The notes beneath the pieces were generated by a model. The model had not been told where the DNA came from. It worked only from the letters and a program-made list of their open reading frames with translations, and did no database searches. The translations under genes and the position numbers were made by a program. 64,000 bases of DNA from contig CAYZZC010000002.1 of assembly GCA_964482995.1 (NCBI GenBank), positions 1,074-65,073 on the forward strand, in the 5' to 3' direction. Shown here piece by piece: positions 30,986 to 50,381 of this stretch (within the stretch, counting starts at the first letter, position 1; every line of letters starts with the position of its first letter). This DNA is from an uncultured Candidatus Saccharibacteria bacterium. GTDB taxonomy: Bacteria; Patescibacteriota; Minisyncoccia; Phycocordibacterales; SBAW01.

Positions 30986-32026
30986 ATGAAAGCCGCTATT
31001 TTGGAGCAGATCGATGCGCCACTTACTGTGGGCGAAGTAGGGCTAACTGAGCTTTTGCGCGGCCAGGTTTTGGTCAAGATTTTAGTGAGCGGTATTTGTG
31101 GCTCGCAACTCCAAGAAATCGCAGGCAACAAAGGTAACGCAAAGTTTCTGCCACACCTGATGGGGCACGAGGGCTGCGGTATTGTCGAGGAGGTGGGTGA
31201 GGGCGTCACCAAGGTAAAAAAAGGAGACAAGGTGGTGATGCACTGGCGTAAAGGTGAAGGAGTCGAAGCAGATTTCCCCACATACACATTCAACGGCAAG
31301 ACAATGAAGAGCGGCAAAGTAACCACTTTTAGTGAACACTCGATTGTTTCAGAAAATCGGGTGACACCGGTGCCCAACGACACACCAAACGACCTATGTG
31401 CACTTTTGGGCTGCTCGCTCTCTACAGCGCTCGGCACTATAAACACCGAGGCAAAAGTACAGCGTGGAGAAAGCGTCATGATTGTGGGGGCGGGAGGTCT
31501 TGGTGCTAATTTAATCAAAGCGGCAAAAATGGCAGGCGCCTCGCCTATTATCTCTGTCGATATTCACGAGCATAAGCGAGAGTCTGCACTTCTACTTGGT
31601 GCAACGCATTTTATAAACGCCGCGACAGAAGGTATTGCAGACGCACTTCTAACACAAACAGGCCTCAAGAGTGTCAGTGTTATTGTCGACACCTCAGGCG
31701 CTAAGAAAAGTTTAGAGAGCACTATCCCGCTCCTTTCTGGTGGCGGGCGCTATATTCTTGTCGGCCAACCAAAACCTGGCGAGACTATTGAGCTTACAAA
31801 CGCGTATCATTTTTTTGACGGAGAAGGGAAGACACTTAAAGCAACACAAGGAGGTGGTTTTATGCCAAGCACGGATATCCCGCGCTACCTCGAGCTGTTT
31901 GCATCTGGCGCGCTCAACATAGACGGCATAATCACGCACCGAATTTCACTCGACCAAATAAATGAAGCAATTGATTTAGTACGAAAGGGGATGGCTGGTC
32001 GGGTTATTATAGACATATCATCATGA
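30986..32026 (+). CDS. Zinc-dependent alcohol dehydrogenase (MDR family)
   Basis: GICGSQLQ, HLMGHEGCGIVEEVGEGV and the GAGGLG Rossmann segment. Confidence 0.8.
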   Translation: MKAAILEQIDAPLTVGEVGLTELLRGQVLVKILVSGICGSQLQEIAGNKGNAKFLPHLMGHEGCGIVEEVGEGVTKVKKGDKVVMHWRKGEGVEADFPTYTFNGKTMKSGKVTTFSEHSIVSENRVTPVPNDTPNDLCALLGCSLSTALGTINTEAKVQRGESVMIVGAGGLGANLIKAAKMAGASPIISVDIHEHKRESALLLGATHFINAATEGIADALLTQTGLKSVSVIVDTSGAKKSLESTIPLLSGGGRYILVGQPKPGETIELTNAYHFFDGEGKTLKATQGGGFMPSTDIPRYLELFASGALNIDGIITHRISLDQINEAIDLVRKGMAGRVIIDISS

Positions 32027-32976
32027 ACAAACTTTTAGAAGCATATAAGCGGATGCTTTTCATACGAGTTGCCGAGCAAGAGCTTGTACAACTGTATCTC
32101 GACAAAAAGTTATTTAGTATGGTGCACTTTTATGTCGGCCAAGAGGCTGTGGCGGTTGGTGTATGCGACGCACTAAAACCCGAGGACAAAGTGATGGGCA
32201 ATCATCGCTCGCACGGGCACTACCTCGCCAAGGGCGGCAACTTCCGCAGGATGGCGTGCGAGCTCCTCGGCCGTGCAAACGGCCTGGCGCACGGCAAGGG
32301 CGGCTCGATGCACATGATCGACAAGTCGGTTAACTTTGTCGGCTCAACCCCGCTTTTGGGGAGCGTTGCGCCGCTTGCAGCCGGTGTTGCGTTTGAACAA
32401 AAGTTTAATAATCGAGACACTATCACTACTGCCTTTTATGGCGACGGCGCCTCAGAAGAGGGCGTGGTGTACGAGACATACAACTTGGCGGCGCTGTACC
32501 AAGTGCCGCTGCTCCTGATTGTTGAAAATAATCTCTTTGCTATCAACTCAAAACTAAAAGACCGCCGCGCGCCCGGCCATACTCTTGAAAAAATTGTATC
32601 AGGGTTCGGTGTCGAGTATAGAAAAGCAGACGGGAACGATTACAAAGACGTGCATGCAAAAGCAAAAGAACTAGCCGACCTTGTCCGCCGAGAAAAGCGG
32701 CCAGCCGTGCTTGAGTGTGTTACCTACCGCCACATGGCGCACTCAACACCCCTTATGGATGAAAAACATCGTGAGGCAGATACGCTTGAAGAGCGCACCA
32801 AGCAAGACCCCCTTACTAAGCTTAAGGCTGAGCTTCTTGCGAGCGGCATTACAGAAGGAGAGCTTGCTACTTTAGAAAAAACATTTAAAGAGGAAGTGCA
32901 GGCTGATATCAATTTCGCGCTCGAGTCGCCGTTCCCCACAAAGGAAGAAATGTATACCGACATGTATGCAGAATAA
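32023..32976 (+). CDS. ThDP-dependent 2-oxoacid dehydrogenase E1 component, alpha subunit (PdhA/AcoA-like)
   Basis: FYVGQEAVAVGV, HRSHGHYLAKG, ThDP motif region YGDGASEEGVVYETYNLAAL. ATGA overlap with the ADH. Confidence 0.85.
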   Translation: MNKLLEAYKRMLFIRVAEQELVQLYLDKKLFSMVHFYVGQEAVAVGVCDALKPEDKVMGNHRSHGHYLAKGGNFRRMACELLGRANGLAHGKGGSMHMIDKSVNFVGSTPLLGSVAPLAAGVAFEQKFNNRDTITTAFYGDGASEEGVVYETYNLAALYQVPLLLIVENNLFAINSKLKDRRAPGHTLEKIVSGFGVEYRKADGNDYKDVHAKAKELADLVRREKRPAVLECVTYRHMAHSTPLMDEKHREADTLEERTKQDPLTKLKAELLASGITEGELATLEKTFKEEVQADINFALESPFPTKEEMYTDMYAE

Positions 32977-34015
32977 TTACAATATGGAACCAAGGATTAT
33001 CAAATACGCCGAGGCGATTAAAGAGGCCACCAAGCAGATACTCGAAAGCGACAAAACCGCTTTTCTTATGGGCCTTGGTGTCCCGCAGGGTGCCGCAGGC
33101 ACTGTCGTGGGGCTTAAAGAGCTCTTCCCCACCCAAGTGCTTGATACACCGACCTCTGAGGCGGCGCTCACCGGGCTAGCGGTCGGGGCGGCTATCAGCG
33201 GCCTGCGCCCCATGGTCTACCATGAGCGCGTTGAGTTTAGCTTGCTCGCCAGCGACGCTATCTTTACCCAGGCTGCAAAATGGAACTACATGTTTGGCGG
33301 CAACAACCCAGTGCCGGTAGTGCTGCGTATTGCCGTTGGCCGACAGTGGGGCAATGGCCCACAGCACTCCCAGGCGCTCTACGGCCTCTTTGGAGCGGTG
33401 CGGGGGCTTAAAGTGGTTATACCCTCGACCCCCCACATGATGAAGGGCCTGCTAATATCCGCTATCCGCGATAACAACCCTGTCGTGATTCTAGAGCCCC
33501 GTTGGCTCTACCAGGTAAAGGGGCATGTGCCAACTGAGATGTTTACTGAGCCGCTCGACCGCGCACGCGTGGTTAAAGAAGGGACTGATCTCACGGTGGT
33601 TGCCTACGGCGACGGTTTTGTAGACACACTTGCTGCGCTCAAGCTCTTGCCGGAGGATATCAGTGTTGAGATGATCGACCTCGTGAGCATCAACCCGATT
33701 GACCACCAAACGATCGCGAAGTCGGTTGAGAAAACAGGCCGGCTTCTGTGTGTCGACAGCACCAACAGCGCATTTAGCATTGGCTCAGAGATAATCGCTA
33801 AAGTAGCGCAAAATCCGGTGGGCTTAACTCAAGCGCCCGTTGGAGTCGCGGCGCCCGATGTGCCGGTGCCCACCTCGCCCGCCTTAAGCGAGTTTTGGTA
33901 CCCAACTAAAATCGACATCGCAAACGCGATTTTGAAAATGTTTGGGAAACCCGAGCTCGATATAAAACTCCCGTTCGAAGAGCTCCACCTTGCCCCGACC
34001 ACCACGCTCGAGTAA
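32966..34015 (+). CDS. 2-oxoacid dehydrogenase E1 component, beta subunit (transketolase-like)
   Basis: Transketolase pyrimidine-binding and C-terminal domain pattern (LMGLGV..., VVIPSTPHMMKGLL, DLTVVAYG). Confidence 0.85.
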   Translation: MQNNYNMEPRIIKYAEAIKEATKQILESDKTAFLMGLGVPQGAAGTVVGLKELFPTQVLDTPTSEAALTGLAVGAAISGLRPMVYHERVEFSLLASDAIFTQAAKWNYMFGGNNPVPVVLRIAVGRQWGNGPQHSQALYGLFGAVRGLKVVIPSTPHMMKGLLISAIRDNNPVVILEPRWLYQVKGHVPTEMFTEPLDRARVVKEGTDLTVVAYGDGFVDTLAALKLLPEDISVEMIDLVSINPIDHQTIAKSVEKTGRLLCVDSTNSAFSIGSEIIAKVAQNPVGLTQAPVGVAAPDVPVPTSPALSEFWYPTKIDIANAILKMFGKPELDIKLPFEELHLAPTTTLE

Positions 34016-34625: not shown

Positions 34626-35441
34626 TTACTGAGCGAAGTTGGCGTATTTGTTTTCAAAATACGTTTCTTTGCCAAAGTAATATGGCCAGTCGATACTGTT
34701 GTTTTTGGTGACAATGTGCGGCACGTTAGCAAACCACGCTGCGGTGTTGCTTAAAGTTGTGTTTGTACCAATGACGACACTGCAGGTGGAGAGTAAAAAC
34801 AGGTTAGTCTCGGCGTTCTCAAGGTAGACATGTGTCGTGTACCCTTCAAATATTTTTGCTGCAGGAGCTCGGTCTGAGGCGATCAAAAGCTCTACGTCCC
34901 CTTTATGGAGTTGTTTCTCGCGCATATATTCATCGATAATCTCTCGCACGCGCGTGGATGAGACCAAGAACTCACCGTCCTCGAAGCCCCCAAATGGTAT
35001 GAGTCGTAGATGGACGCCAATTTTTATACGGCCGGTTTTTAGCGGTGCCACAAGACTTTCGATCTTTCTTTGCAGACGAGGTGATGACCCGAATTTTTCT
35101 ATTATCTGCTTTCTGTAGCGCTCGAGCCCAAGTGGGTTTCTAAACATCCAGCCAAAAAAGTAGAGAGTCTCTTGTGCCTCAAGTGCGGGGGGCAAGGCTT
35201 CAGTCGGTGAGAGGAATTTCGGCCCGCCCAAGGCCCATATGCCCGCTTTACCGCGCGTTACTTTGTCTACCATCCATGCATAAAGCGCATACGGCCTACG
35301 CAGTACGCGGTCCTGTTCAAAAAAACTTATATTGACAACCTCTCTACCGCTTTCAATGCCATAGGCATAGATACTCATATCGTTTAGCAGCCGGTTGGCG
35401 TACTCGTGCGCACGATGTTCGATGATAAAAAGCTTTTTCAT
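34626..35441 (-). CDS. Putative glycosyltransferase (fucosyltransferase/GT11-like), low confidence
   Basis: Start MKKLFII abuts the stop of the upstream gene. FFG-W and HLRLIPFGG segments weakly recall GT11. No firm motif. Confidence 0.35.
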   Translation of the reverse strand: MKKLFIIEHRAHEYANRLLNDMSIYAYGIESGREVVNISFFEQDRVLRRPYALYAWMVDKVTRGKAGIWALGGPKFLSPTEALPPALEAQETLYFFGWMFRNPLGLERYRKQIIEKFGSSPRLQRKIESLVAPLKTGRIKIGVHLRLIPFGGFEDGEFLVSSTRVREIIDEYMREKQLHKGDVELLIASDRAPAAKIFEGYTTHVYLENAETNLFLLSTCSVVIGTNTTLSNTAAWFANVPHIVTKNNSIDWPYYFGKETYFENKYANFAQ

Positions 35442-36142
35442 TCTAGTATTGTCCAATTCTTTTTGAGTATGGGGAGCCGCCATGGGGGGTTACTGCGCGC
35501 ATACCGATGTACAAAAAGTTTTTGTTTTGGGTTTTGATAGGGAAGGCAGTCGACTAAAAACATAAATACGGAGTCTACCACGTGTATCTCCTCTGCACGC
35601 TCCATGACCGTGCAATAGTCAAAGATATTATCTGTTAAACTCTTTTCGGCGCGTACTGCAAGGAGGTGTGCCGGCAGTCTTTGAGGCGACATACGCGAAC
35701 CGTAGATAGCGTCGTCGTGGATAAATATATAGGGCTCTTTGGATGTGACACGTGCAAAAAAATCTTGTTCCCGCGTTTGGTCGCGCTGTACATAAAAACT
35801 GCTCCACTTTTTTTCGTGCGGCACGTTTGCCAGCGCGTAAAATTGTCGCTCCGCTGGGATGCCAAGCTCTGTGTCGTCGTAGAGTATTTTGATCTCGTCG
35901 TAGCGCGCGCTACCAAGCTTGAATTTGTTGTAGAAGCGAAAGAATTGCTTATCTCGGTGGTTGTTTGATTTTTCTATTTTGAGATTCTCCAAATCACGAT
36001 ACATAAAGGAGACTGAAGCAAAATAACGGGGGATACAGAAGATCCCGACACGGTCATATTTTTTGCAATATTCACGCACTAAACCGTTGACGATTATGTT
36101 GTCGCCCAGCTTGTTGTGGTGGTCAAGGAGTATGCTAGACAC
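35438..36142 (-). CDS. Hypothetical protein in glycan locus
   Basis: Long ORF co-directional with and abutting the downstream gene. No recognisable motif. Confidence 0.4.
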   Translation of the reverse strand: MSSILLDHHNKLGDNIIVNGLVREYCKKYDRVGIFCIPRYFASVSFMYRDLENLKIEKSNNHRDKQFFRFYNKFKLGSARYDEIKILYDDTELGIPAERQFYALANVPHEKKWSSFYVQRDQTREQDFFARVTSKEPYIFIHDDAIYGSRMSPQRLPAHLLAVRAEKSLTDNIFDYCTVMERAEEIHVVDSVFMFLVDCLPYQNPKQKLFVHRYARSNPPWRLPILKKNWTILE

Positions 36143-36180: not shown

Positions 36181-36954
36181 ATGAAAAAGATACTCGTTAT
36201 AGGCGAAACGTGCCTGGACCGCTTTGTGTATTGCCACGCGGAGCGTCTTGCCCCCGACCTACCTGTGCCAGTTTTGAACGTGATCGAGGAGACGAAGAAC
36301 CCCGGTATGGCCAAAAATGTCGAGCGCAACATCAAGGCGATCTACGAGCATTGCGATCTTATCACCAACCCCGGTTGGGAGGAGGTTACCAAAACGCGCT
36401 ACGTCCACCGCAACTCAAACCACACGTTTATACGCATTGATGCGAACACACACATCGACCGTATCGCTATGCGCGACATGCCGCTCGACGAGTATGAGAT
36501 TGTTGCAATTTCAGACTATAACAAAGGGTTTTTAAAAGAGGAGGACATTCAGGCAATCTGCGAACGGCATGACAAAGTTTTTATTGATACAAAAAAGGTG
36601 CTCGGCGACTGGGCTGCCAAAGCAAAGATAATTAAAATAAACAATTTCGAATACGAGCGCTCCAAACCAAACATTACTCCCGAACTCGCTGAGAAGATTA
36701 TTTGCACCAAAGGTGAGTTTGGGGCGCAGTTTCAGGGCAGATTATATTCTGTTACACCAGCCGAGGTTAAAGACTCCAGTGGTGCCGGAGACTCCTTCTT
36801 TGCGGCGCTTCTGGTACGATACATAGAGACAGGCGACATCGACGAGTCTATCCGTTTTGCTAACGAGTGCGCCTCAAAGGTAGTGGCGCAAAAAGGTATC
36901 ACTGTTATTGAACGACCAAAAAAAGTTACACATGAACAAGGTCAAAACGCTTAA
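36181..36954 (+). CDS. PfkB-family carbohydrate kinase, HldA/RfaE-domain-I-like (D-glycero-beta-D-manno-heptose-7-phosphate kinase)
   Basis: N-terminal MKKILVIGETCLDRF and a C-terminal DSSGAGDSFFAALL anion-hole motif. Immediately followed by an HldC-like gene. Confidence 0.65.
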   Translation: MKKILVIGETCLDRFVYCHAERLAPDLPVPVLNVIEETKNPGMAKNVERNIKAIYEHCDLITNPGWEEVTKTRYVHRNSNHTFIRIDANTHIDRIAMRDMPLDEYEIVAISDYNKGFLKEEDIQAICERHDKVFIDTKKVLGDWAAKAKIIKINNFEYERSKPNITPELAEKIICTKGEFGAQFQGRLYSVTPAEVKDSSGAGDSFFAALLVRYIETGDIDESIRFANECASKVVAQKGITVIERPKKVTHEQGQNA

Positions 36955-37420
36955 AGAGGTCCTGCGTGCAACTAACGCTGCGCGCAAAGAAGGTAAAAAA
37001 ATAGTCGCTACAAACGGCTGTTTTGACATCATGCATGTGGGCCACGTACAAAGCTTTACTCAAGCAAAAAAACTGGGGGATATTTTGGTAGTGGGTATAA
37101 ACTCAGACGCCTCAGTCCGCACCAATAAGGGCGACCTGAGGCCGATAGTCCCCGAGCGCGACCGAGCCACGGTGGTAGCGGCTCTTGCGGTGGTAGACTA
37201 TGTATTTATTTTTCCTGAAAAAACTCCTTTCTCCTGGATAAAAAAGATGCGCCCAGATATCCAGGTGAAGGGTGTTGATACAAAAAACCATCCTGACTTC
37301 GCCGCTCAAAAGCGCACACTCGAAAAAATCGGCGCCAAGTTCGTACTGCTCCCGTTGGTTAAAGGCAAATCAACGACAAAAATTATTGAAAAGATAACCC
37401 GCGCGTACAACAAAAATTAG
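36932..37420 (+). CDS. Cytidylyltransferase-fold adenylyltransferase, HldC/RfaE-domain-II-like (D-beta-D-heptose-1-phosphate adenylyltransferase)
   Basis: IVATNGCFDIMHVGHVQ (HxGH motif) and VVGINSDASVR. Confidence 0.75.
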   Translation: MNKVKTLKEVLRATNAARKEGKKIVATNGCFDIMHVGHVQSFTQAKKLGDILVVGINSDASVRTNKGDLRPIVPERDRATVVAALAVVDYVFIFPEKTPFSWIKKMRPDIQVKGVDTKNHPDFAAQKRTLEKIGAKFVLLPLVKGKSTTKIIEKITRAYNKN

Positions 37421-37794
37421 CTCTTTTTCTGGCTGTCACCCTTGCCGATGCGGTAGGAGTCGCTCTCTTCGTGGGTGGTAGAAACCTCTACAATGACCGA
37501 AGGCTCAAGTGCCACAAGCTGGTGGGGGGTTGAGGGCGGGATATGCACTACGCTGCCAGGCCCAAGCTCGGTTATGATGCGGTCTGCGTTGGCGAGGTTG
37601 TAGTACCTTAGCTCTAGTTTGCCATCGAGCACATACCAAGCCTCATCTTTTTTCTTGTGGTAGTGGTCGCTAAACGTGGCTCCCTTGTTAAACTTAAGGA
37701 GCTTGCCGCAGTACTTCTCGGTATTGATGATCCATATCTCGGCCCCCCAGCCCTTGGGGTGTATCTCCGCCTGTAGTATCTCTAAGTCGCTCAT
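37417..37794 (-). CDS. Cupin-domain protein (possible sugar isomerase/epimerase)
   Basis: GKLELRYY...GPGSVVHIPPSTPHQL is a two-motif cupin signature. 125 aa. Confidence 0.55.
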   Translation of the reverse strand: MSDLEILQAEIHPKGWGAEIWIINTEKYCGKLLKFNKGATFSDHYHKKKDEAWYVLDGKLELRYYNLANADRIITELGPGSVVHIPPSTPHQLVALEPSVIVEVSTTHEESDSYRIGKGDSQKKS

Positions 37795-37880: not shown

Positions 37881-38243
37881 ATGCAAGGCGCGGCTATTAT
37901 TATAGGTGTTGGTGTCGATGTGGTGGAAATTGACAATATACAAAAAGCTCGGTTTAAAAAGAGGCTTGCCGAATATTTTTTAACCCCGCAGGAGATTAAA
38001 CTTATGCCCAAGGGGTCAAAAGTATCTCAGTATATTGCCTCCCGCTTTGCGCTAAAGGAGGCGGTCATCAAAGCATTTCCCGAAAGTCTTTCGCCTTTTG
38101 ATTTTAGGATTGAGAAGAGAGGTGGGCGGCCTGTGGTGGTATTTATTGACTCGCACCAGAATAAAAAATATAAAATATTTGCGAGCTTGACGCACACTGC
38201 GCACATTGCTGCCGCGGTCGCGATCGTACATACAAAGAAATAG
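37881..38243 (+). CDS. acpS: Holo-[acyl-carrier-protein] synthase (4'-phosphopantetheinyl transferase)
   Basis: IIGVGVDVVEIDNI, FALKEAVIKAF and SLTHTAHIAAAVAIV are typical AcpS motifs. 120 aa. Confidence 0.75.
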   Translation: MQGAAIIIGVGVDVVEIDNIQKARFKKRLAEYFLTPQEIKLMPKGSKVSQYIASRFALKEAVIKAFPESLSPFDFRIEKRGGRPVVVFIDSHQNKKYKIFASLTHTAHIAAAVAIVHTKK

Positions 38244-38245
38244 AT

Positions 38246-39949
38246 ATGCACCCACTCTCCTATATCAGTTCCTATATGCGCCGCCCCAAGCTTGCCCCAA
38301 AGGGCATGCGGGCTGTCTCGATCAACCTCATCACCAACTTTACAGACGATGTGCTCGAACGTGTACTCGGCGGGATGTGTCTCGCAGAAGACGTCTACCC
38401 AAATATTACCCGCGCACCATATAAACAGTATGCCCTTGCATTTAAAAATAAAAAAAGTGAAATCAATACGTCAAAACCAGACATATCCTACATTTTTTTT
38501 GACGCAAGCCCGTACAAACAGTCCGAATTTTTAGATCCCGCGCATAGAAAAGAGATACTCGCAGACATTGAACGCTATGCACGGGCGACAGGCGGAGCTA
38601 CTATTGTCTGCCTATTTGCTTTGCCGTACCATGGCGCATACGGCCATCATTTTGCCGAGGAGCCGCTTTTTGTTGCGCTATCCGATCTTAATACAAAACT
38701 AAAAGTACTAGCGAAGAAAAACGCTAGTATCCATATTTTTGACACAAATAAAGTGATAGCCCAGGTGGGAGAAACTCATGCGCGTGACTTACGTGGCCAT
38801 CATGCGTTTGATATGCCCTTTACTACCGACTTTCTTACAGCACTCGCTGCATCCTGGCTCACATATGCGCGCGCAATTCTTGGGCTTTCGCGCAAATGTA
38901 TTGTGTTAGACCTCGACAATACCATTTGGGGCGGGATTGTTGGCGAAGAAGGAGCGCTTGGTGTAATACTCGGGCACGAGTATCCTGGCATCGCGTATCA
39001 GAACTTCCAGCGAGCGCTTCTCTCTATGTGGGAGCGCGGAGTAATCCTAGCTATAAACAGCAAAAACAATGAGGCAGACGTTGATGAAGTGTTTAAGAAA
39101 AACCCGCACATGATTTTAAAAAAAGAGCATATCGCCGTTATTCGGGCAAACTGGGAGGACAAAACCCAAAATATCAGAGAGATAGCGCAGGAGCTCAATA
39201 TAGGCCTCGATAGCCTCGTGTTTATCGATGACTCACCACTTGAGCGGGAGCGTATGCGCACAGAGGTTCCCGAGGTTATGACACCTGAGTGGAGTTTGGA
39301 GCCTGAGCACTACGCGAGAGAGCTTTTTTCGCTAAATGTATTTCACCAGATGTCTCTCACCACAGAGGATAAGAAAAAAGGTCAAATGTATGTTGAGGAA
39401 AACAAGCGAAAAAAAATACAGACAACTGCAAAAAACGTCGATGAGTACATTAAAAAGCTCAAAATTACTGTAACAGTTGCGCAGGGGCATGAGGTGGATA
39501 TTGCACGTGCGGCTCAACTGACTCAAAAAACAAACCAATTTAACCTCACCACCAAACGTTACTCTGAGGCCGATATTAGTCATATGATTAAAAAGGGCGA
39601 TATGGTAATCACTGGCGATGTCAGAGACATATTCGGTGGGTATGGTGTCGTTATCCTGGCGATCATAAAAATCGAAAAGAAACGTGCAACCCTTGATACA
39701 TTTTTAATGAGCTGTCGGGTTATGGGTCGAGGAGTGGAAGAGGTATTTTTTGAACATATAATTAAGCAGCTCCACGCAAAAGGCATGGAGACACTCAAAG
39801 CTTCTTTTATACCGACTCCCAAAAACAAACCCGCCTCGAAGTTCCTCTCCTCTGTTAGTATACACTCAGCTTCGCCCACGAAACTTGAGCCCTATATAAA
39901 AAAGATTGCCAAGCATAAGCAGAAACCTATTATCAGTATCACTTCTTAA
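38246..39949 (+). CDS. FkbH-like protein (HAD-IIIC family phosphatase/acyl-ACP loader)
   Basis: Central HAD motif I CIVLDLDNTIWGG, then INSKNNEADV and VFIDDSPLE. The 567-aa domain order matches FkbH/OzmB-type glyceryl-ACP loaders. Confidence 0.7.
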   Translation: MHPLSYISSYMRRPKLAPKGMRAVSINLITNFTDDVLERVLGGMCLAEDVYPNITRAPYKQYALAFKNKKSEINTSKPDISYIFFDASPYKQSEFLDPAHRKEILADIERYARATGGATIVCLFALPYHGAYGHHFAEEPLFVALSDLNTKLKVLAKKNASIHIFDTNKVIAQVGETHARDLRGHHAFDMPFTTDFLTALAASWLTYARAILGLSRKCIVLDLDNTIWGGIVGEEGALGVILGHEYPGIAYQNFQRALLSMWERGVILAINSKNNEADVDEVFKKNPHMILKKEHIAVIRANWEDKTQNIREIAQELNIGLDSLVFIDDSPLERERMRTEVPEVMTPEWSLEPEHYARELFSLNVFHQMSLTTEDKKKGQMYVEENKRKKIQTTAKNVDEYIKKLKITVTVAQGHEVDIARAAQLTQKTNQFNLTTKRYSEADISHMIKKGDMVITGDVRDIFGGYGVVILAIIKIEKKRATLDTFLMSCRVMGRGVEEVFFEHIIKQLHAKGMETLKASFIPTPKNKPASKFLSSVSIHSASPTKLEPYIKKIAKHKQKPIISITS

Positions 39950-39950
39950 T

Positions 39951-40181
39951 ATGGACACCCTCAAACACATTTTCTCCTCAATTCTTGGTGTGCCTGAGGC
40001 GCGCGTTGTGGACTCGCTCTCGCCAGAGAACACCGCAACTTGGGATTCGCTCAATGCGATTATTTTACTCACCGAGATAGAGAAGGCCTTTAACGTGAAG
40101 TTTACGTTCGACGAGGCGATGGCAGTAAAGAATTTTGGCGGGGCCGTGGCACTTATCCGCTCTAAAGGTGGCAAAGTATAA
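39951..40181 (+). CDS. Acyl carrier protein (discrete, 76 aa)
   Basis: TWDSLNAIILLTEIEKAF contains the DSL phosphopantetheine-attachment serine; ATG 2 nt after the fkbH-like stop. Confidence 0.75.
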   Translation: MDTLKHIFSSILGVPEARVVDSLSPENTATWDSLNAIILLTEIEKAFNVKFTFDEAMAVKNFGGAVALIRSKGGKV

Positions 40182-40187
40182 ACTTAT

Positions 40188-40610
40188 ATGCCCGCCGTAT
40201 CTAAAAAATTTTCAGATATTATGGTTGGGGAGCGTGCCCAGTTTGAAATTAATATTACGGAAAAGTTAGTGGATGAGTTTGCAAAAGTCTCTGGCGACTA
40301 TAATCCGCTCCATACCGACGAAGCATATGCAAAAAACTCTCCGCTTGGTGGGCGTATTGCGCACGGCATGATCGCAGGCGCGCTGTTTTCTCGCCTACTC
40401 GGTATGTATCTCCCTGGAGAGAAATGCCTTTATTTATCACAGTCACTTTTTTTTAGAAAACCGATCAGGATAGGCACAGAGGTGATTGTGTTAGGGGAGG
40501 TCCAGCATAAAACAGACTCACTCCAAGCGCTCACTATAAGAACGTGCGTATCCAACAAACAAACAAGCGAAGCACTCGTCGACGGTGAAGCTATAGTCAA
40601 AATGTTATGA
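40188..40610 (+). CDS. MaoC-like hotdog-fold dehydratase
   Basis: DYNPLHTDEAYA matches the (R)-hydratase DxNPxHxD motif. 140 aa. Confidence 0.75.
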   Translation: MPAVSKKFSDIMVGERAQFEINITEKLVDEFAKVSGDYNPLHTDEAYAKNSPLGGRIAHGMIAGALFSRLLGMYLPGEKCLYLSQSLFFRKPIRIGTEVIVLGEVQHKTDSLQALTIRTCVSNKQTSEALVDGEAIVKML

Positions 40611-41353
40611 CCAAAAAAAACGGAAAAGTAGTCTTGTTGAGCGGCGGGATGGGTGGTGTGGGGAGTGCCATAGCAACGCTGCTTATAGAAAGTGGCTATC
40701 AGGTAGCTCTTTTATACAGGAGCTCCTCGGAGGGTGAGGTGTTGGAGAAAAAAGGAACACTTGGGGAGCTGTCTTTTTTTGTTCAATGTGATGTTGCAAA
40801 TTTTAGAGAGACTGAGTTTGCGGTCAAAAAAGTCCTCGATCATTTCGGATCTATTGATATATGCATCCATGCTGCGGTTGGGAAGATTACCAGAAAGCCG
40901 ATACTCGACATGAAGGCGGAGGAATTTAGGGATGAGTTTGAAGCGGGTTTGTTTGGAGCCTTTAATCTTTTTTCTTCCGCTCTGCCTTCAATGAAAAAGC
41001 ATGGTGGGGGTATGCTTATCGGTATCACTTCCTCAACTATCGAGATTGGTAGCGGAGCTCGTATGGGGGCCTACAGCACGGCAAAATATGCTTTGCGCGG
41101 TTTACTCCGCGAACTCTATAAAGAACTTAAGGCTGAAAATATTGATGTGTATGCCGTAGCGCCTGACCTTCTCAAAACCGATCTCACTGCAGATTTGCCA
41201 GAGAAATATTTTGAGTTTGCAGAGGCAAAAACACACCAAAAGAAATTAATGATCCCAGAAGATGTGGCAAAAGTTGTTCTTTCTGTATGCCAGGGCGCAG
41301 TAAAGAGCGGGAGCTCAATACTTGTCTCGACAGGTGTGGCGACTGCGTTATAA
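40607..41353 (+). CDS. SDR-family oxidoreductase (ketoreductase, FabG-like)
   Basis: LLSGGMGGVGSAIA glycine-rich motif, YSTAKYALRGL (YxxxK). ATGA overlap with maoC. Confidence 0.8.
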   Translation: MTKKNGKVVLLSGGMGGVGSAIATLLIESGYQVALLYRSSSEGEVLEKKGTLGELSFFVQCDVANFRETEFAVKKVLDHFGSIDICIHAAVGKITRKPILDMKAEEFRDEFEAGLFGAFNLFSSALPSMKKHGGGMLIGITSSTIEIGSGARMGAYSTAKYALRGLLRELYKELKAENIDVYAVAPDLLKTDLTADLPEKYFEFAEAKTHQKKLMIPEDVAKVVLSVCQGAVKSGSSILVSTGVATAL

Positions 41354-41362
41354 TCCCGACAC

Positions 41363-42823
41363 ATGCTTTTTAACTCGATTCCTTTTCTTGTATTTTTTCC
41401 CGTTGTCTTCTTTTTGTATTGGGCCTTACCAGGCAAGGTACGCCCTTTTCTTCTGCTTCTTGCGAGCTGCTATTTCTACATGGCATTTGTGCCGTACTAC
41501 ATTCTCGTCTTATTTTTTCTTATCACCGTTGATTATGTTCTGGCATTTTATATCGAAAGAGGAGGTGCCTATAAAAAATTATATCTCTACGTAGCGATCC
41601 TATCCAATGTAGGCCTCCTGTTTGTATTTAAATACTTCAACTTTTTCGATGACAATATAACAGCTCTTGCACAAACACTTCATTGGAACTATTCACTTGG
41701 TGCGCTCTCGCTTATTCTGCCGCTTGGTCTCTCGTTTCATATCTTTCAAAGCCTGGCCTATATTATTGAGGTCTATAAGGGTCGATACAATCCTGAGCGC
41801 AACTACCTCACCTATGCGCTCTATGTGATGTTCTTCCCGCAACTAGTGGCCGGCCCGATTGAGCGTCCTGCACAACTTCTCCCACAGCTTAAAACAACAC
41901 AGCAGTTCAGGTACAGCCAGGTCGTATCGGGCTTGCGTTTAATGATGTGGGGATTCTTTAAGAAAATTGTCATTGCTAATAACCTCGCGATTCTTGTTAC
42001 TTTTGTATATGCACGCTCGGGCACCGCAGACGCCTCAGTATTGTTGGTAGCCGTTTTCGCATTCTCGATCCAGCTCTATGCCGATTTTTCGGGGTACTCC
42101 GATATAGCAGTTGGCTCGGCTCGGATGCTTGGTATCGAGCTCGTACAGAACTTTAAACAACCTTACTTTTCGCGCTCGATTGCAGAGTTTTGGCGGCGCT
42201 GGCATATTTCGCTCTCCTCCTGGTTTCGCGACTATGTATATCTCCCGCTTGCATGGAAATACTCTGCTCGCCCGTGGGGCCTGTACGGCGCAGTCGTTTT
42301 TACTTTTGTGTTGACAGGTGTTTGGCACGGTGCGGGATGGAACTATGCCGCAATGGGCTTATTGTTTGGACTCTATATCTGTGTAGGTATGTGGACGAAA
42401 AATTGGCGTGACTCAGTTGCAAAAAAAATAGGATTAGGAGAAGGGCTGCGAGCGATTTTTCAGATAGGCACCACATTTATTTTGACCACGTTTGCATGGA
42501 TATTTTTTAGGTCAGCAAACCTGCAAGAAGCGCTGATGATCATTCGCCGTTTGTTAACAGAGTGGGGAAGCGACGCATTCCATTTTCTCCTTTGCGGTGA
42601 CTACTGCTCTTTTTATATGCTAGGTGTAGGTAAGAAGACTCTTCTTATGATAGGTCTTTCGGTCGCGATACTTTTTATTGTTGAATACGTACAACAATCA
42701 GCTACTACGCCGCGCCTCTGGCAGTATCGCGCGGTTAGATGGGGTTCTTATTACCTGCTCCTCGTGTGGACTCTTCTTATAGGCTACTTTGCACCGACAA
42801 TATTTATCTACTTCCAATTTTAA
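41363..42823 (+). CDS. MBOAT-family membrane O-acyltransferase (DltB/AlgI-like)
   Basis: Polytopic, with FWRRWHISLSSWFRDYVYLPL containing the conserved MBOAT histidine. Confidence 0.85.
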   Translation: MLFNSIPFLVFFPVVFFLYWALPGKVRPFLLLLASCYFYMAFVPYYILVLFFLITVDYVLAFYIERGGAYKKLYLYVAILSNVGLLFVFKYFNFFDDNITALAQTLHWNYSLGALSLILPLGLSFHIFQSLAYIIEVYKGRYNPERNYLTYALYVMFFPQLVAGPIERPAQLLPQLKTTQQFRYSQVVSGLRLMMWGFFKKIVIANNLAILVTFVYARSGTADASVLLVAVFAFSIQLYADFSGYSDIAVGSARMLGIELVQNFKQPYFSRSIAEFWRRWHISLSSWFRDYVYLPLAWKYSARPWGLYGAVVFTFVLTGVWHGAGWNYAAMGLLFGLYICVGMWTKNWRDSVAKKIGLGEGLRAIFQIGTTFILTTFAWIFFRSANLQEALMIIRRLLTEWGSDAFHFLLCGDYCSFYMLGVGKKTLLMIGLSVAILFIVEYVQQSATTPRLWQYRAVRWGSYYLLLVWTLLIGYFAPTIFIYFQF

Positions 42824-42827
42824 CTAT

Positions 42828-43985
42828 ATGCCTCTATTTATAAAAAATATCCTCATGTTTCTTACACCAATCGCGCTGGTGTTTGCGCCGGCAGTTATCG
42901 TCCTTACTGCTTCCGGTGAGTTTTATTCAACACAAAAGGTGGGAGAGTTGGCGCGCAGCAGGGAAACAATTGTTGTTGGTGCCGCCTACAGCAACACGAG
43001 GGGTGACTACCAATTGCAAGAGACCTTCATTCGTAAACCAGAAGTCATTGCCCTTGGCACCTCGCGGGTAGGAGGCTTCCGCGCAGTCTTTTTTAAAGAC
43101 CCTGCTGTTTTTTATAATGACACTGGCACAGGAGGAGTACTCAGCAACTTCAGATATTTCTTGGAGAAGGTTTCTGACAACTCGCCGAAGATTATCATCG
43201 CAGGCATGGACCCTTATTTTTTTAGCCCTGAAGAAGTCGCACGAAACAGTGTGGTCACAAGGCCCGACCCTTTTGTTGCTTATATCTCACCCCACCGCCC
43301 ATTTTTTGAGGGCCTCTTTTTGGGAGGCGGGTGGTGGAGGATATATCCCGATTACTTCTCAGATAAATTTTCTTTGAGTGATGTATTTGGTGCGCAGTAT
43401 GCGAATACAACATACATTGGCTTGCGCGCAGTTGCCGACGGTAACGGGTTCTTAAACGACGGCAGCAATTACTTTGGTGATGTTATTAGCAGCAAAGAGA
43501 AGCAACAAAATGCACGTGCGAGTATCGAGGCTCTAGCAGCAAGTATCTCTGAAACGAGCGGCGACGAGTACGGGAGTGGCATTTCACCAGAAGCCCTTGC
43601 TGAAGTACGCAGGTTCTTAGATACTACAAAAAAACAGGGGAGTTACGTAATTGGCTTTATACCGCCGCTTTCGCACGCGCAGTATGAGCGGCTAAAAGAA
43701 TTCCCTAATGCGCCCTATGCCTACGCTTTTAAAAATCTAGGACCAGTATTAACTAACCTCTATAAGGAATATGGCTACGATTTCTATGATTTTACGGACA
43801 TTACTGCCTTTGGTGGCTCGGACAGCGAGATGGTAGAGTCTAAGCACGGGTCAGAAAAGCTGTATCTGCGGATGTTTATAAAGATGGCGCAGATAAATAA
43901 ACAGCTTGGCGCTTTAGTGGACACGAGGTACCTTACAAAGAGGCTGCAAAGCGCAGAAAGCAATCTCGTTGTATTTCCTCTATGA
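42828..43985 (+). CDS. DltD/AlgJ-like membrane-anchored partner of the MBOAT (SGNH-like extracytoplasmic acyltransferase)
   Basis: N-terminal TM anchor, then IALGTSRVGG with a candidate catalytic Ser. Size (385 aa) and position immediately after the MBOAT mirror dltB-dltD. Confidence 0.5.
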   Translation: MPLFIKNILMFLTPIALVFAPAVIVLTASGEFYSTQKVGELARSRETIVVGAAYSNTRGDYQLQETFIRKPEVIALGTSRVGGFRAVFFKDPAVFYNDTGTGGVLSNFRYFLEKVSDNSPKIIIAGMDPYFFSPEEVARNSVVTRPDPFVAYISPHRPFFEGLFLGGGWWRIYPDYFSDKFSLSDVFGAQYANTTYIGLRAVADGNGFLNDGSNYFGDVISSKEKQQNARASIEALAASISETSGDEYGSGISPEALAEVRRFLDTTKKQGSYVIGFIPPLSHAQYERLKEFPNAPYAYAFKNLGPVLTNLYKEYGYDFYDFTDITAFGGSDSEMVESKHGSEKLYLRMFIKMAQINKQLGALVDTRYLTKRLQSAESNLVVFPL

Positions 43986-45055
43986 CAATCCATTACTTTA
44001 CCTTTAGCAATGTGCAGGGCGGCTCCTCCCGGCAGCGCGCATTTCGAGTCGTAGATGAGCTGCGCGCGCGCGGGCTCTCAGTCGTTATTCATACACCTCC
44101 CGTACTCGATATATCGCGCACGCGTTGGCCAAAAAAATTCTTGCTTATATTGCAGGTAGTCCGCTCACTCTTTTCGATCAAAAAGGGTGACATTATTTAC
44201 CTACAGCGCACGATCTCAAACAAATATTTTTTTGTGATTATGGTTGCGTATATTTGGTTTTTTAGACGGAAAATGATTTTTGACCTTGACGACCCGGTCT
44301 GGCTCCATAGCTTTTTTAAGACAAAAATGTTTACTAAGATGGCTGATGTTGTTGTCACTTGCTCACATGCACAAGCTGAGTGGGCGAGACAGTTTAATAA
44401 AAACGTACACATAATCCACATCGCCCTTGACCTTGCGGCCTACAAAAAATTCACCAAAGACTATACTACCAAATCGACTCCTGTGGTAATTGGGTGGGTA
44501 GGGACTGGGCCCGAGCACCTTTATAACCTCCAAGATCTCGCAGCTGTTTTTGAACAACTTTTAAAAAAGAGCCCCATCCCGTTTAAGTTTGTGCTTATCG
44601 GAGCGCTCAAAAACAAAAAGGTGTATGAGGTATTTCAAACTATTCCTGGCCTCAATGTCGAGTTTATAGACGCGCTTGACTGGAACAACCCCGAGAGCGT
44701 GCCGCGAGAGATCCAAAAATTTGATATTGGTGTCCTACCGCACAAAGCGGAGGGTGAGTGGAACAAGGCTAAAACCTCTTTCAAGATCCTTGAGTACATG
44801 GCGTGCGGGGTTGCCTCAGTGGTGAGCGATTTTGGCGAGATGCCGTACATTGTCACTGACGGCACAAACGGCTTTCTCTCTTCTTCTCAAGAGGAGTGGG
44901 CAGAGAAGTTGGAGCAGCTCATTGCAGACAAAGATTTGCGTGCGCGGCTTGGGAAGGCTGGGCAAGAGCGAGTGCGAGAAGAATATTCTTTTGACGCAAT
45001 TATCCCGCGGCTTATAGAAATTTTTAAGACTCTCGAGCGTGTGCCCAATCGATAA
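43982..45055 (+). CDS. Glycosyltransferase family 4/1
   Basis: C-terminal FKILEYMACGVASVVSDFGEMPYIVTDGTNGFL (EX7E region). Confidence 0.7.
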   Translation: MTIHYFTFSNVQGGSSRQRAFRVVDELRARGLSVVIHTPPVLDISRTRWPKKFLLILQVVRSLFSIKKGDIIYLQRTISNKYFFVIMVAYIWFFRRKMIFDLDDPVWLHSFFKTKMFTKMADVVVTCSHAQAEWARQFNKNVHIIHIALDLAAYKKFTKDYTTKSTPVVIGWVGTGPEHLYNLQDLAAVFEQLLKKSPIPFKFVLIGALKNKKVYEVFQTIPGLNVEFIDALDWNNPESVPREIQKFDIGVLPHKAEGEWNKAKTSFKILEYMACGVASVVSDFGEMPYIVTDGTNGFLSSSQEEWAEKLEQLIADKDLRARLGKAGQERVREEYSFDAIIPRLIEIFKTLERVPNR

Positions 45056-50332: not shown

Positions 50333-50381
50333 TGTTCGCTAGTTGTGTTACAACAATTGTTCTGACACAGTTGTAATATCT

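Follow-up and report, generated by a model that had tools for sequence, protein, structure and literature searches.

The closest described counterparts of the locus reported here are pathways in which an MBOAT protein and an extracytoplasmic SGNH partner acylate a surface polymer. In teichoic-acid D-alanylation (Dlt: DltA, DltC, DltB, DltX and DltD), the FXYXXF motif, an acyl-tyrosine shuttle, is located on the DltX microprotein, and in acetyl-CoA-using MBOATs such as PatA it is fused to the acyltransferase (PMC12148441). The shuttle mechanism has been experimentally established for Dlt and for PatA/PatB, characterised PatA/AlgI-type MBOATs use acetyl-CoA, and MBOAT/SGNH pathways other than Dlt were described in the same 2025 paper as having no carrier protein (PMC12148441). 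The PatA/AlgI group includes PatA/PatB (peptidoglycan), AlgI/AlgJ/AlgX (alginate) and PatA1/PatB1 (SCWP).

FkbH-type loaders of polyketide and nonribosomal peptide assembly lines (FkbH, OzmB and ZmaN), which convert 1,3-bisphosphoglycerate (1,3-BPG) to glyceryl-S-ACP, combine HAD-IIIC and C-terminal Cys domains and have a cognate discrete ACP. A loader-dehydratase-reductase set has been proposed to give lactyl-ACP in the BryA and lankacidin lactyl/pyruvoyl starter logic, and for lankacidin the pyruvoyl- and lactoyl-ACP starter units were proposed to derive from 1,3-BPG (PMC6162330). FkbH-like genes with an ACP are also found in surface-glycan contexts (C. jejuni cj1302, B. fragilis BF1531 and S. 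meliloti pSymB); no functional characterisation of these genes was found in the literature.

We analyzed a 64,000-nt stretch of the genome of an uncultured Candidatus Saccharibacteria bacterium, an ultra-small CPR organism (GCA_964482995.1, contig CAYZZC010000002.1). This stretch, referred to below as the window, contains elements of all these systems in one operon. Judging from the predicted proteins, a three-carbon hydroxy acid, most likely lactate, appears to be built on a dedicated carrier protein and moved by a pair of membrane enzymes to a cell-surface polymer. The reading that we prefer, with a probability of roughly 0.55, is that the operon is a self-contained module acylating an extracytoplasmic polymer.

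Organization of the operon

A first-pass annotation had described seven co-directional, tightly packed genes forming a Dlt-like acylation module, and all seven were found on the + strand (Table 1), with intergenic gaps, in gene order, of 2, 1, 6, -4, 9 and 4 nt. Their number was correct as far as it went, but an eighth gene, encoding a GT4 glycosyltransferase, belongs to the operon too: its ATG overlaps the stop codon of gene 7, indicating translational coupling, and packing across the eight genes is -4 to +9 nt. GT4 is probably the link between the module and the glycan of the surrounding island, which spans ~9-62 kb of the window (~50 kb). The domain assignments for AcpS, FkbH, ACP, MaoC, SDR and MBOAT all passed curated HMM thresholds.

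Table 1. Features of the operon (positions in the window).
Feature	Position	Strand	Evidence
AcpS-type 4'-phosphopantetheinyl transferase, 120 aa	37881..38243	+	PF01648 51.7 bits; TIGR00516 66.7 bits
FkbH-like loader, 567 aa	38246..39949	+	TIGR01686 305.6 bits; TIGR01681 76 bits
Discrete acyl carrier protein, 76 aa	39951..40181	+	PF00550 28.6 bits
MaoC-type hotdog (R)-hydratase/dehydratase, 140 aa	40188..40610	+	PF01575 66.2 bits
Short-chain dehydrogenase/reductase (SDR), FabG-like, 248 aa	40607..41353	+	adh_short 129 bits; KR 43.9 bits
MBOAT transmembrane acyltransferase, 486 aa	41363..42823	+	PF03062 77.4 bits
MBOAT C-terminal acyl-shuttle hexapeptide F481-I-Y483-F-Q-F486 (FXYXXF)	42803..42820	+	motif in sequence; role of Tyr483 predicted
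Gene 7, membrane-anchored SGNH-fold protein, 385 aa	42828..43985	+	fold level
Gene 8, GT4 glycosyltransferase	43982..45055	+	PF00534, PF13692

The intact domains of the module's proteins and the tight packing of its eight genes both count for the surface-acylation explanation, and the MBOAT/SGNH pair is favored as outlet because no second acyltransferase was found in the window's glycan island. In the operon and among scanned window ORFs of at least 150 aa, there were no KS or AT genes and no AMP-binding domain of a DltA-type ligase. Only one ACP is present.

Loader, carrier protein and editing enzymes

AcpS exceeds the curated TIGR00516 cutoff (66.7 versus 59.8 bits) and is predicted to be dedicated to the module's ACP, converting it to the holo form. 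The phosphopantetheine site of the ACP is Ser33, the DSL serine in WDSLN, and the protein scores below every AcpP and DltC equivalog cutoff. With KS and AT missing and a single ACP present, there was no sign that it carries a fatty acyl group. Judging from synteny, this ACP may serve as the acyl donor of the MBOAT.

The FkbH-like protein starts with an SGNH/flavodoxin-like domain (aa 1-215), which matches PDB 3slr (BF1531; E 1.6e-46), followed from aa 216 by a HAD-IIIC phosphatase with a DLDNT motif (D222/D224) and by a C-terminal acyltransferase part holding Cys490 in LMSCRVMGRG. The TIGR01686 match (curated cutoff 146.65 bits) extends over aa 216-538 and model positions 3-318 of 323; thus, the C-terminal acyltransferase region, on which the loader assignment hinged, is present. 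D222, D224 and C490 are invariant across aligned homologues. The best FkbH homologue (81% identity) is from Parcubacteria bacterium Gr01-1014_56. A 359-aa homologue from a B. thuringiensis NRPS/PKS cluster, presumably ZmaN from zwittermicin biosynthesis, is 29% identical over 314 aa and shares the motifs including Cys490. By extrapolation from enzymes of ~29% identity, the module's FkbH may convert 1,3-BPG to glyceryl-S-ACP. It differs from the PKS/NRPS loaders in several respects: the module lacks a downstream KS, PKS or NRPS; its output would go to a membrane acyltransferase pair within a glycan locus; its dehydratase (MaoC hotdog) and reductase (SDR) are free-standing; and the loader has an extra N-terminal domain, as does B. 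fragilis BF1531.

MaoC carries the complete hydratase-2 motif, read from the translation as F-AK-V-S-G-D-Y-N-P-L-H-TDEAY-A (FAKVSGDYNPLHTDEAYA, aa 31-48; pattern tested: [YF]-x(1,2)-[LVIG]-[STGC]-G-D-x-N-P-[LIV]-H-x5-[AS]), with catalytic residues Asp37/His42. SDR has a GGMGGVG cofactor motif at aa 13-19 and candidate active-site residues N120, S142/S143, Y156 and K160, also read from the translation, and thereby shows the Gly-rich motif and Ser-Tyr-Lys residues of classical SDR ketoreductases. It fell below all equivalog cutoffs and scored ~100 bits on acetoacetyl-CoA reductase models. The latter score would agree with an acyl group that is not glycerate-derived, where this FkbH clade loads another unit and MaoC and the FabG/PhaB-like SDR give, for example, (R)-3-hydroxybutyryl-ACP. 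(R)-3-hydroxybutyryl is a common glycan substituent, (R)-3-hydroxyacyl thioesters are products both of MaoC (PhaJ-like) enzymes and of acetoacetyl-CoA-reductase-like SDRs, and the nearest relative found for FkbH that is presumably characterised shares only ~29% identity with it. We nevertheless consider this origin highly improbable: the HAD DxDxT and Cys motifs are fully conserved, implying a phospho-acyl-phosphate substrate such as 1,3-BPG, every SDR match is far below the equivalog cutoffs, and ketosynthase, thiolase and malonyl transferase are absent from the cassettes.

MBOAT and its SGNH partner

The earlier assignment of the MBOAT as a transmembrane O-acyltransferase stands, but its C-terminal FIYFQF had been overlooked. 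His281 and His322 are conserved, and 32 homologues share H281, H322, F481, I482, Y483, F484 and F486 without exception. FIYFQF, whose Tyr483 is predicted to be the acyl-tyrosine carrier, follows two extra C-terminal helices (424-446 and 456-473). Among window ORFs, the MBOAT is the only one that ends in FxYxxF, and none encodes a DltX microprotein with this motif. Nearly all complete, full-length MBOATs paired with gene-7 relatives have FIYFQF, or an FxYxxF sequence close to it, at the C terminus. Architecturally, the MBOAT is PatA/AlgI-type, with a fused acyl-shuttle motif, and not DltB-type. Since characterised members of this type use acetyl-CoA, the architecture counts against a carrier-protein donor. 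In sequence searches of the PDB, only DltB was matched (6bug and 8jem), and for the AF2 model (pLDDT 88) DltB was also the best Foldseek match (TMt 0.72-0.74).

Gene 7 starts here at 42828 (gene callers place its start at 42855) and has an N-terminal TM helix at aa 2-28, a predicted Ser79 (GTSR)/His340/Glu337 triad and a block-III-like NDGS motif at 210-213. It had been called DltD/AlgJ-like. No Pfam or NCBIfam profile matched it, including PF04914 (DltD) and PF16822 (AlgX), so this call could not be confirmed by HMM; it holds at the fold level, where an SGNH fold was found and the longest structural alignment was to DltD, but not as membership in the DltD or AlgJ sequence families. DUF1574 (PF07611, SGNH clan), listed as uncharacterised (PMC9487903), matched 8 of 26 close homologues (best E 2.8e-7) and not gene 7 itself. 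The protein probably belongs to an uncharacterised SGNH family close to DUF1574, and it occupies the DltD/PatB position in the module.

As in Dlt, a dedicated carrier protein, an MBOAT and a membrane-anchored SGNH protein are encoded together and FXYXXF is present. Unlike Dlt, the module has FkbH, MaoC and SDR in place of a DltA-type ligase, its FXYXXF belongs to the MBOAT itself, where two extra helices carry it, and not to a DltX microprotein, its MBOAT, ACP and SGNH protein do not reach the thresholds of the DltB, DltC and DltD models, its predicted acyl group is a hydroxy acid and not an amino acid, and its host is a CPR bacterium. DltB and DltD equivalogs were considered for the pair and rejected (TIGR04091 154 versus 375 bits; 486 aa with extra helices; no PF04914 match). 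With the PatA/AlgI systems, the module shares an MBOAT in the ~480-490 aa range with a conserved His, a C-terminal FXYXXF on two additional TM helices and an extracytoplasmic SGNH partner with a Ser-His-acid triad (predicted in gene 7). Those systems use acetyl-CoA without a carrier protein (PMC12148441), whereas this operon adds a PPTase, a loader, an ACP and two editing enzymes, and its SGNH partner comes from a different family.

Proposed pathway

Based on characterised FkbH enzymes and on the FkbH+DH+KR scheme put forward for lactyl/pyruvoyl PKS starter units, FkbH would remove the 3-phosphate of 1,3-BPG and load glyceryl onto the ACP, MaoC would eliminate the 3-OH to give the enol of pyruvoyl-ACP, and SDR would reduce this to lactyl-ACP, keto- and enoyl-reductase activity of SDR leading to the same product. 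By analogy with Dlt and PatA/PatB, acyl-ACP would then dock at the cytoplasmic face of the MBOAT, where His322 would transfer the acyl group to Tyr483 of FIYFQF at the outer face; Ser79 of the membrane-anchored SGNH protein would take it up and esterify a hydroxyl of the surface polymer, for which a glycan made by the coupled GT4 and the island around it is the probable candidate. Lactyl as product, the ACP as donor and the glycan as acceptor are our inferences. Such a pathway would combine the carrier-protein donor of Dlt with the fused shuttle of PatA/AlgI, without DltX and with FkbH/DH/KR replacing DltA. The claim that FkbH-ACP-DH-KR feeding an MBOAT/DltD pair is undescribed is consistent with the searchable literature, including the statement that no MBOAT/SGNH pathway but Dlt has a carrier protein (PMC12148441). 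If true, this would be only the second known carrier-protein-driven system of its kind after teichoic-acid D-alanylation.

Distribution of FkbH-ACP cassettes and MBOAT/SGNH pairs

We surveyed 56 well-flanked FkbH loci for neighboring genes; clustering retained 66 FkbH loci. In 55 of the 56 loci an ACP gene was found no more than 5 kb away from FkbH, and in 31 an AcpS gene, archaeal loci included. Near FkbH-ACP, the 66 loci contained LbH hexapeptide transferases only (17), AAC(3)-like transferases only (10), an MBOAT without either (12), LbH plus MBOAT (1), gene 7 alone (1) or none of these (25). This near-exclusive distribution is the pattern expected of alternative outlets for FkbH-ACP. FkbH-ACP cassettes and MBOAT/gene-7 pairs were found to co-occur in other genomes: locus L086 has an intact AcpS-FkbH-ACP-MaoC-SDR-MBOAT-gene7 unit (gene 7 and FkbH 30% and 44% identical to those of the window, respectively), flanked by GH26, YceG, pyrF and ATP synthase genes. 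With no other transferase there, acyl-ACP has no outlet available but the MBOAT/SGNH pair. In L009/L010, the MBOAT is short, DltB-like (TIGR04091 197 bits) and without the motif, and the FkbH-ACP-MaoC-SDR cassette encloses two DltX-like microprotein ORFs, one ending in FIYTLF and the other in FIYNNF. At L097, four consecutive genes encode an adenylate-forming ligase, a carrier protein, an MBOAT and a gene-7 relative; the ligase is acetyl-CoA-synthetase-like, not DltA-like, and so could make a CoA thioester. Cassette-linked MBOATs formed one clade in an NJ tree without support values, and in loci lacking gene 7 the MBOAT neighbor was an AlgX/GDSL-type SGNH protein. The original idea of Dlt logic with a swapped loader thus gains independent comparative support from L086, L009/L010, L097 and the outlet pattern, and these gene arrangements support the view that the ACP cassette and the MBOAT/SGNH pair are coupled.

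It is also conceivable, though unlikely, that the co-location is coincidental, with the MBOAT and gene 7 forming an acetyl-CoA O-acetyltransferase of the PatA/PatB or AlgI/AlgJ kind and the cassette feeding an unlinked transferase, such as an N-acyltransferase acting on an amino sugar or nonulosonic acid. A fused FXYXXF is typical of acetyl-CoA users; many distant MBOAT-gene-7 pairs (L104, L115, L120, L124, L129 and others) had no carrier protein within 8-10 kb, implying that the pair can work without one; in other loci, FkbH cassettes are mostly accompanied by LbH or AAC(3)-like N-acyltransferases, DegT and NeuB; and the window has its own NeuB/CMP-transferase pathway at 53-57 kb. However, no LbH, AAC(3)-like or DegT gene was found in the window, nor a second acyltransferase in its island (~9-62 kb). 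In L086 the seven genes stand alone among housekeeping genes, the DltX-like microproteins of L009/L010 are embedded in the cassette, MBOAT is near-exclusive with other transferases at FkbH-ACP loci, and synteny is kept across 30-80% identity.

Cassettes without MaoC/SDR (L083, L110/L111 and S. meliloti) or with MaoC only (L012-L014, L091, L093 and archaeal loci) exist, and glyceroyl decorations of glycans are known: C. jejuni has di-O-methylglyceroyl pseudaminic acid, and the FkbH-domain gene cj1302 is part of its locus for flagellin glycosylation (PMC3068675, PMC7099621). In an alternative that is likewise carrier-protein dependent, glyceryl or pyruvoyl would be exported in place of lactyl, with MaoC and/or SDR acting elsewhere (e.g., on a sugar nucleotide) or with no reduction taking place. 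We regard this as less probable still than a coincidental co-location, because the MaoC and SDR genes, which share 4 nt, are placed between those for ACP and MBOAT, both have intact catalytic motifs, and MaoC adjoins FkbH-ACP in 34 of 56 loci. CPR genomes, to our knowledge, lack fatty-acid synthesis, and no other thioester-hydratase substrate is apparent in this one. The occurrence of loci with no editing genes, with MaoC only and with both fits the order loader, dehydratase, reductase.

More tentatively, and with slightly less than even odds, FkbH-ACP cassettes may represent a widespread, unrecognised supply of glycerate-derived acyl groups (glyceryl, pyruvoyl and lactyl) for surface glycans in Bacteria and Archaea, the Patescibacteria MBOAT/SGNH version included. 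LbH or AAC(3)-like N-acyltransferases and MBOAT/SGNH exporters would then be interchangeable outlets; with the Patescibacteria version, transmembrane acylation that depends on a carrier protein would gain a second class, in which lactyl esters, as hydroxy-acid equivalents of D-alanyl esters, are placed on the envelope via an MBOAT-fused acyl-tyrosine shuttle. The final acyl group may differ between loci, since in several of them MaoC has no SDR next to it or a VOC-family gene replaces both. The latter is found in the VOC-MBOAT-ACP-FkbH cluster of S. meliloti pSymB, which resembles the module in having an MBOAT, ending in FLYQGF, and differs from it in that a 409-aa protein of unassigned family replaces gene 7.

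Organization of the Module and Domain Assignments

The first-pass annotation had described seven co-directional, tightly packed genes, and we found seven plus-strand ORFs with gaps of 2, 1, 6, -4, 9 and 4 nt, encoding in order AcpS, FkbH, ACP, MaoC, SDR, MBOAT and the 385-aa SGNH-fold product of gene 7. An eighth operon gene, for a GT4 glycosyltransferase, starts inside the stop codon of gene 7. A promoter and terminator scan of 36-53 kb gave no signal above shuffled expectation and was uninformative on operon boundaries.

Curated thresholds were passed by six of the seven domain calls. AcpS scored 66.7 bits against TIGR00516 (cutoff 59.8), and FkbH 305.6 bits against TIGR01686 (cutoff 146.65) and 76 bits for HAD-IIIC. 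Since model positions 3-318 of 323 of TIGR01686 are covered, the C-terminal acyltransferase region of FkbH, whose absence had been set beforehand as evidence against the assignment, is present. The ACP (PP-binding, 28.6 bits) carries its DSL serine at Ser33, MaoC (66.2 bits) has the full hydratase-2 motif FAKVSGDYNPLHTDEAYA, and the SDR (adh_short, 129 bits) has GGMGGVG and Y156/K160; the MBOAT was called at 77.4 bits. SDR, ACP and MBOAT scored below every equivalog cutoff (FabG; AcpP/DltC; DltB); each belongs to its family without being an orthologue of the enzyme named.

Characterized FkbH enzymes convert 1,3-BPG to phosphoglyceryl-S-Cys, which is dephosphorylated by the HAD domain before the glyceryl unit passes to ACP. 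The motifs required for this 1,3-BPG to glyceryl-ACP chemistry are intact in the window FkbH, whose closest named homologue was from Parcubacteria bacterium Gr01-1014_56 (81% identity), which places the window in a CPR/Patescibacteria genome. An identical FkbH is encoded on a 78.9-kb metagenome contig that shares this gene order. When plasmids were searched by tblastn, a Bacillus thuringiensis NRPS/PKS cluster turned up that includes a HAD-IIIC gene (359 aa), whose product has 29% identity to the window FkbH core over 314 residues; the gene order around it presumably matches the zwittermicin cluster around ZmaN. The two proteins share DLDxTIW, SKNN, FIDD, TNQxN and LLMSCRVMxRGV, including Cys490.

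Positions of features in the window and in comparison loci (L-numbers; loci with FkbH or gene-7 relatives)
Feature	Position	Content
Coupling ATPase gene, next gene	6542-9074	TrwB/TraG-like; then lamin-tail-domain protein
Glycan island, transferases	~9-62 kb	six GT4, GT2, GT9-like, GT47-like, PMT_2 (GT-C) (Pfam)
Glycan island, other genes		FkbM-type methyltransferases, rmlABCD, sugar C-methyltransferase, ABC exporter (Pfam)
Glycan-island ORFs without Pfam match	50343-52268; 34626-36142 (- strand); 29415-30239	641, 285, 234, 274 aa
Dehydrogenase/E1 genes	30986-34015	Zn-dependent alcohol dehydrogenase; TPP-dependent E1 alpha, beta subunits
Genes directly upstream of module	36181-37794	split HldE-like pair; convergent (opposite-strand) 125-aa cupin gene
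Module	37881-43985 (+)	seven genes
Gene 7	42828-43985 (+)	SGNH-fold protein
Eighth operon gene	43982-45055	GT4 glycosyltransferase
NeuB fusion	53081-55501	806 aa; FAD amine-oxidase/UDP-galactopyranose-mutase-like domain, NeuB, SAF domain
Genes after NeuB fusion	after 53081-55501	dehydrogenase-like gene, then CMP-sugar cytidylyltransferase (CMP-sugar synthetase)
Radical SAM gene	62136-63953	B12-binding; 3' end of window
DltX-like microprotein ORFs	L009 11658-11834 and 13146-13322 (also in L010)	inside FkbH-ACP-MaoC-SDR cassette
Ligase-carrier-MBOAT-gene-7 genes	L097 4548-9181	consecutive
VOC/glyoxalase-family gene beside FkbH-ACP	L110/L111 3229-3618; L144 2444-2839; L141 4834-5301
S. meliloti cluster (L141, one pSymB record)	CP140883.1, 1049937-1055816	VOC-MBOAT-409-aa protein-ACP-FkbH-like

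The MBOAT and Its SGNH Partner

Acyl transfer in bacterial MBOAT-SGNH systems has been reported to run through a conserved hexapeptide at the C-terminus, FXYXXF, whose tyrosine is esterified by the acyl group; Dlt has this hexapeptide on the DltX microprotein, with the carrier protein DltC as donor, and PatA-/AlgI-type MBOATs bear it themselves, by fusion on two additional TM helices, with acetyl-CoA as donor (PMC12148441). We found this hexapeptide, previously missed, at the C-terminus of the window MBOAT (PTIFIYFQF-stop), the only ORF in the window with an FxYxxF ending. Residues H281, H322, F481, I482, Y483, F484 and F486 were invariant in 32 MBOAT homologues, and in an AF2 model (pLDDT 88), whose best structural match was DltB (TMt 0.72-0.74), FIYFQF is preceded by two additional helices (424-446, 456-473). 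By architecture the window MBOAT is PatA/AlgI-type, yet its operon also encodes a PPTase, a loader and an ACP.

Gene 7 had no sequence match in Pfam, NCBIfam or PDB, and a word-based search returned only 26 homologues, eight of which weakly matched DUF1574, an SGNH-clan family without known function (PMC9487903). When 1.84 billion cluster representatives were searched with a profile, 2983 matched at E<=1e-3, including 1057 at E<=1e-30. Among 44 diverse members G77, S79, G198, D211, G212 and H340 were invariant and D/E337 nearly so; loci with gene 7 were found with the 26-sequence alignment, as the 44-sequence alignment was too divergent. The conserved block I serine, block-III-like NDGS motif and [DE]xxH block V identify the product as an SGNH protein that is anchored in the membrane and takes the DltD/PatB position. 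The earlier description as DltD/AlgJ-like therefore holds for fold and position, but not for family, since the protein falls outside the DltD and AlgX sequence families.

Probable Coupling of the Cassette to the MBOAT/SGNH Pair

Relatives of FkbH were found in at least 592 matching stretches of GTDB species genomes, from Patescibacteria, Nitrosopumilales, Woesearchaeota, Omnitrophota, Acidobacteriota, Clostridium and others. Of 56 well-flanked loci, 55 had an ACP at a distance of at most 5 kb from FkbH, 34 a MaoC, 31 an AcpS, 20 an SDR and 10 an MBOAT. Neighbor clustering gave three recurrent candidate outlet enzymes, namely hexapeptide (LbH) acyltransferases, AAC(3)-like N-acyltransferases and MBOATs. 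Among 66 retained FkbH loci, 17 had LbH only, 10 AAC(3)-like only and 12 an MBOAT without either; LbH and MBOAT occurred together in one locus and gene 7 by itself in another, and the other 25 had none of these genes. DegT and NeuB were frequent neighbors. The window contains no LbH, AAC(3)-like or DegT family member. A neighborhood survey had been proposed for co-occurrence of FkbH-like genes with MBOAT-DltD pairs; 10 of the 11 closest FkbH loci (45-81% identity) adjoin an MBOAT, and in loci without gene 7 the MBOAT neighbor is an AlgX/GDSL-type SGNH protein. In a neighbor-joining tree without support values, the cassette-linked Patescibacterial MBOATs formed one clade with a single exception, whose contig extends no more than 718 nt upstream from the MBOAT.

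Gene-7 relatives nearly always follow an MBOAT, and many of the more distant pairs (e.g., L104, L115, L120, L124 and L129) lack a carrier protein or FkbH within 8-10 kb; their MBOATs also end in FIYFQF. The pair can evidently function without a carrier, presumably with acetyl-CoA, so that plain O-acetylation, with the cassette co-located by accident, is the main rival explanation. We consider it unlikely, as it is hard to square with three observations. First, the outlet pattern of LbH, AAC(3)-like and MBOAT enzymes is near-exclusive. Second, in locus L086 the same order, AcpS-FkbH-ACP-MaoC-SDR-MBOAT-gene 7, recurs (FkbH, core only, 44% identical; gene 7, 30%) among GH26, YceG, pyrF and ATP synthase genes, which indicates that the seven genes form a portable unit, complete in itself, in which the acyl-ACP has no other outlet. 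Third, L009/L010 have a short, DltB-like MBOAT (393 aa; DltB model 197 bits) that lacks the FxYxxF motif, and the cassette itself contains two DltX-like microprotein ORFs of ~40-55 aa, one between FkbH and ACP and the other after SDR, each with one hydrophobic (TM) helix and ending in FIYTLF and FIYNNF. This is a split, Dlt-style arrangement in which the cassette is physically tied to acyl-shuttle machinery. It is probable that the MBOAT/SGNH pair is fed by the ACP.

L009 also has two SGNH-like genes upstream. In L097 an adenylate-forming ligase, a 79-aa carrier protein, an MBOAT and a gene-7 relative are consecutive and adjoin a WbuX-type sugar amidotransferase gene. A DltA-like identity of this ligase was rejected, since it is acetyl-CoA-synthetase-like (NF003313, 643 bits, below cutoff); the architecture is ligase, carrier, MBOAT and SGNH, not true Dlt, and may represent a further MBOAT variant that is fed by a carrier but loaded by another enzyme. 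FkbH-ACP-MaoC-AcpS cassettes were common in archaea (L018-L033 and others; Nitrosopumilales, Woesearchaeota), partnered by hexapeptide or AAC(3)-like N-acyltransferases, DegT aminotransferases and NeuB; to our knowledge, archaea generally lack ACP-based metabolism. An FkbH match on an unannotated Ralstonia megaplasmid record had a 1570-aa ORF downstream (simple ORF calling, high GC), which might point to a natural-product cluster.

Proposed Acyl Group and Acceptor

None of the cassettes contains a KS, AT, thiolase or thioesterase, and a C3 unit is therefore the parsimonious product. MaoC would strip the 3-OH from 2,3-dihydroxypropanoyl-ACP to give the enol of pyruvoyl-ACP, and the SDR could reduce the keto or enol form alike to lactyl-ACP. 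For lankacidin, it has been proposed that 1,3-BPG gives rise to starter units in the form of pyruvoyl- or lactoyl-ACP (PMC6162330), and the first-pass annotation had cited the same lactyl starter idea for BryA. Cassettes had no editing genes (L083, L110/L111, S. meliloti), MaoC only, or MaoC plus SDR; such gene content fits an order of loader, dehydratase and reductase, and suggests putative glyceryl, pyruvoyl and lactyl versions. In L110/L111, S. meliloti pSymB and Clostridium perfringens plasmids, a VOC/glyoxalase-family gene takes the place of MaoC/SDR and could encode an epimerase or other editing enzyme acting on the acyl-ACP. The whole statement, that the ACP feeds the MBOAT/SGNH pair with a glycerate-derived C3 acyl group, most likely lactyl, is favored at a probability of roughly 0.55.

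A fatty-acyl or polyketide role of the ACP was rejected for want of KS, AT or thioesterase in any cassette. The hydroxymalonyl/methoxymalonyl-ACP route, which needs FkbK- and FkbI-type dehydrogenases, was rejected because the operon and the annotated recurrent neighbor families yielded no 3-hydroxyacyl-CoA or acyl-CoA dehydrogenase candidate. With regard to the acceptor, a surface glycan is suggested in the window by the translational coupling to the GT4 gene and by the island around the module; a wall polymer is equally possible, given the YceG/MltG neighbor in L086.

Relation to Known Systems

The module resembles Dlt in its predicted use of a carrier-protein donor, but membership tests for Dlt failed: as proposed earlier, an FkbH loader replaces the DltA-type ligase, DltA itself being absent, and scores on the models for DltB, DltC and DltD were below threshold or lacking. 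It resembles PatA/PatB in the shuttle motif fused to its MBOAT, and differs from the PatA/AlgI class in having a dedicated carrier apparatus. Loading by FkbH with a dehydratase and a reductase recalls a polyketide starter module. The wiring had been thought undescribed, and full-text literature searches likewise returned no description; FkbH and MBOAT are co-mentioned for the unrelated cyanobacterial aeruginosin/suomilide clusters. Comparative evidence for the proposed module is consistent. Earlier work had already noted that glycan loci can contain FkbH-domain genes; one of them, cj1302, lies in the Campylobacter jejuni flagellin glycosylation locus (PMC7099621), and di-O-methylglyceroyl pseudaminic acid occurs in this organism (PMC3068675). 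Bacteroides fragilis BF1531 has a structural-genomics entry; the literature searched contained no functional study of cj1302 or BF1531.

Resistance to antibiotics and lysozyme, recognition by phages and interaction with hosts are all affected when MBOAT-SGNH pairs acylate envelope polymers. CPR envelopes are almost unstudied, and the CPR episymbiotic lifestyle relies on surface contacts. The field recognizes one carrier-protein-dependent pathway, Dlt, and acyl-CoA donors are otherwise assumed (PMC12148441). If our reading is correct, the donor side of MBOAT-SGNH machines would be modular, taking a ligase, an FkbH loader or acyl-CoA, and the variants in which DltX is naturally fused or split off would offer a means of dissecting the acyl-tyrosine shuttle. 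Functions would also be assigned to the "HAD-IIIC phosphatase" gene family (at least 592 GTDB species genomes) and the DUF1574-like SGNH family (~3000 50%-identity clusters), and CPR bacteria would be predicted to have a new surface chemistry.

The idea would be testable in a genetic model organism through the S. meliloti pSymB cluster. FkbH matched ~40 Sinorhizobium plasmid records; on pSymB the FkbH-like protein has 628 aa (TIGR01686, 288 bits) and the MBOAT ends in FLYQGF. The 409-aa protein between MBOAT and ACP, annotated "TonB-dependent receptor", had no Pfam or NCBIfam match and was rejected as a gene 7 relative (hhalign probability 0.2%).

The Surrounding Glycan Island

Pfam scans outside the module showed that most of the window is one large glycan island. 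The dehydrogenase and E1 genes in it may serve to add a two-carbon branch to a sugar. In the split HldE-like pair, a PfkB sugar kinase gene overlaps that of a cytidylyl/adenylyltransferase. The NeuB fusion and the genes after it form an unusual nonulosonic-acid pathway arrangement.
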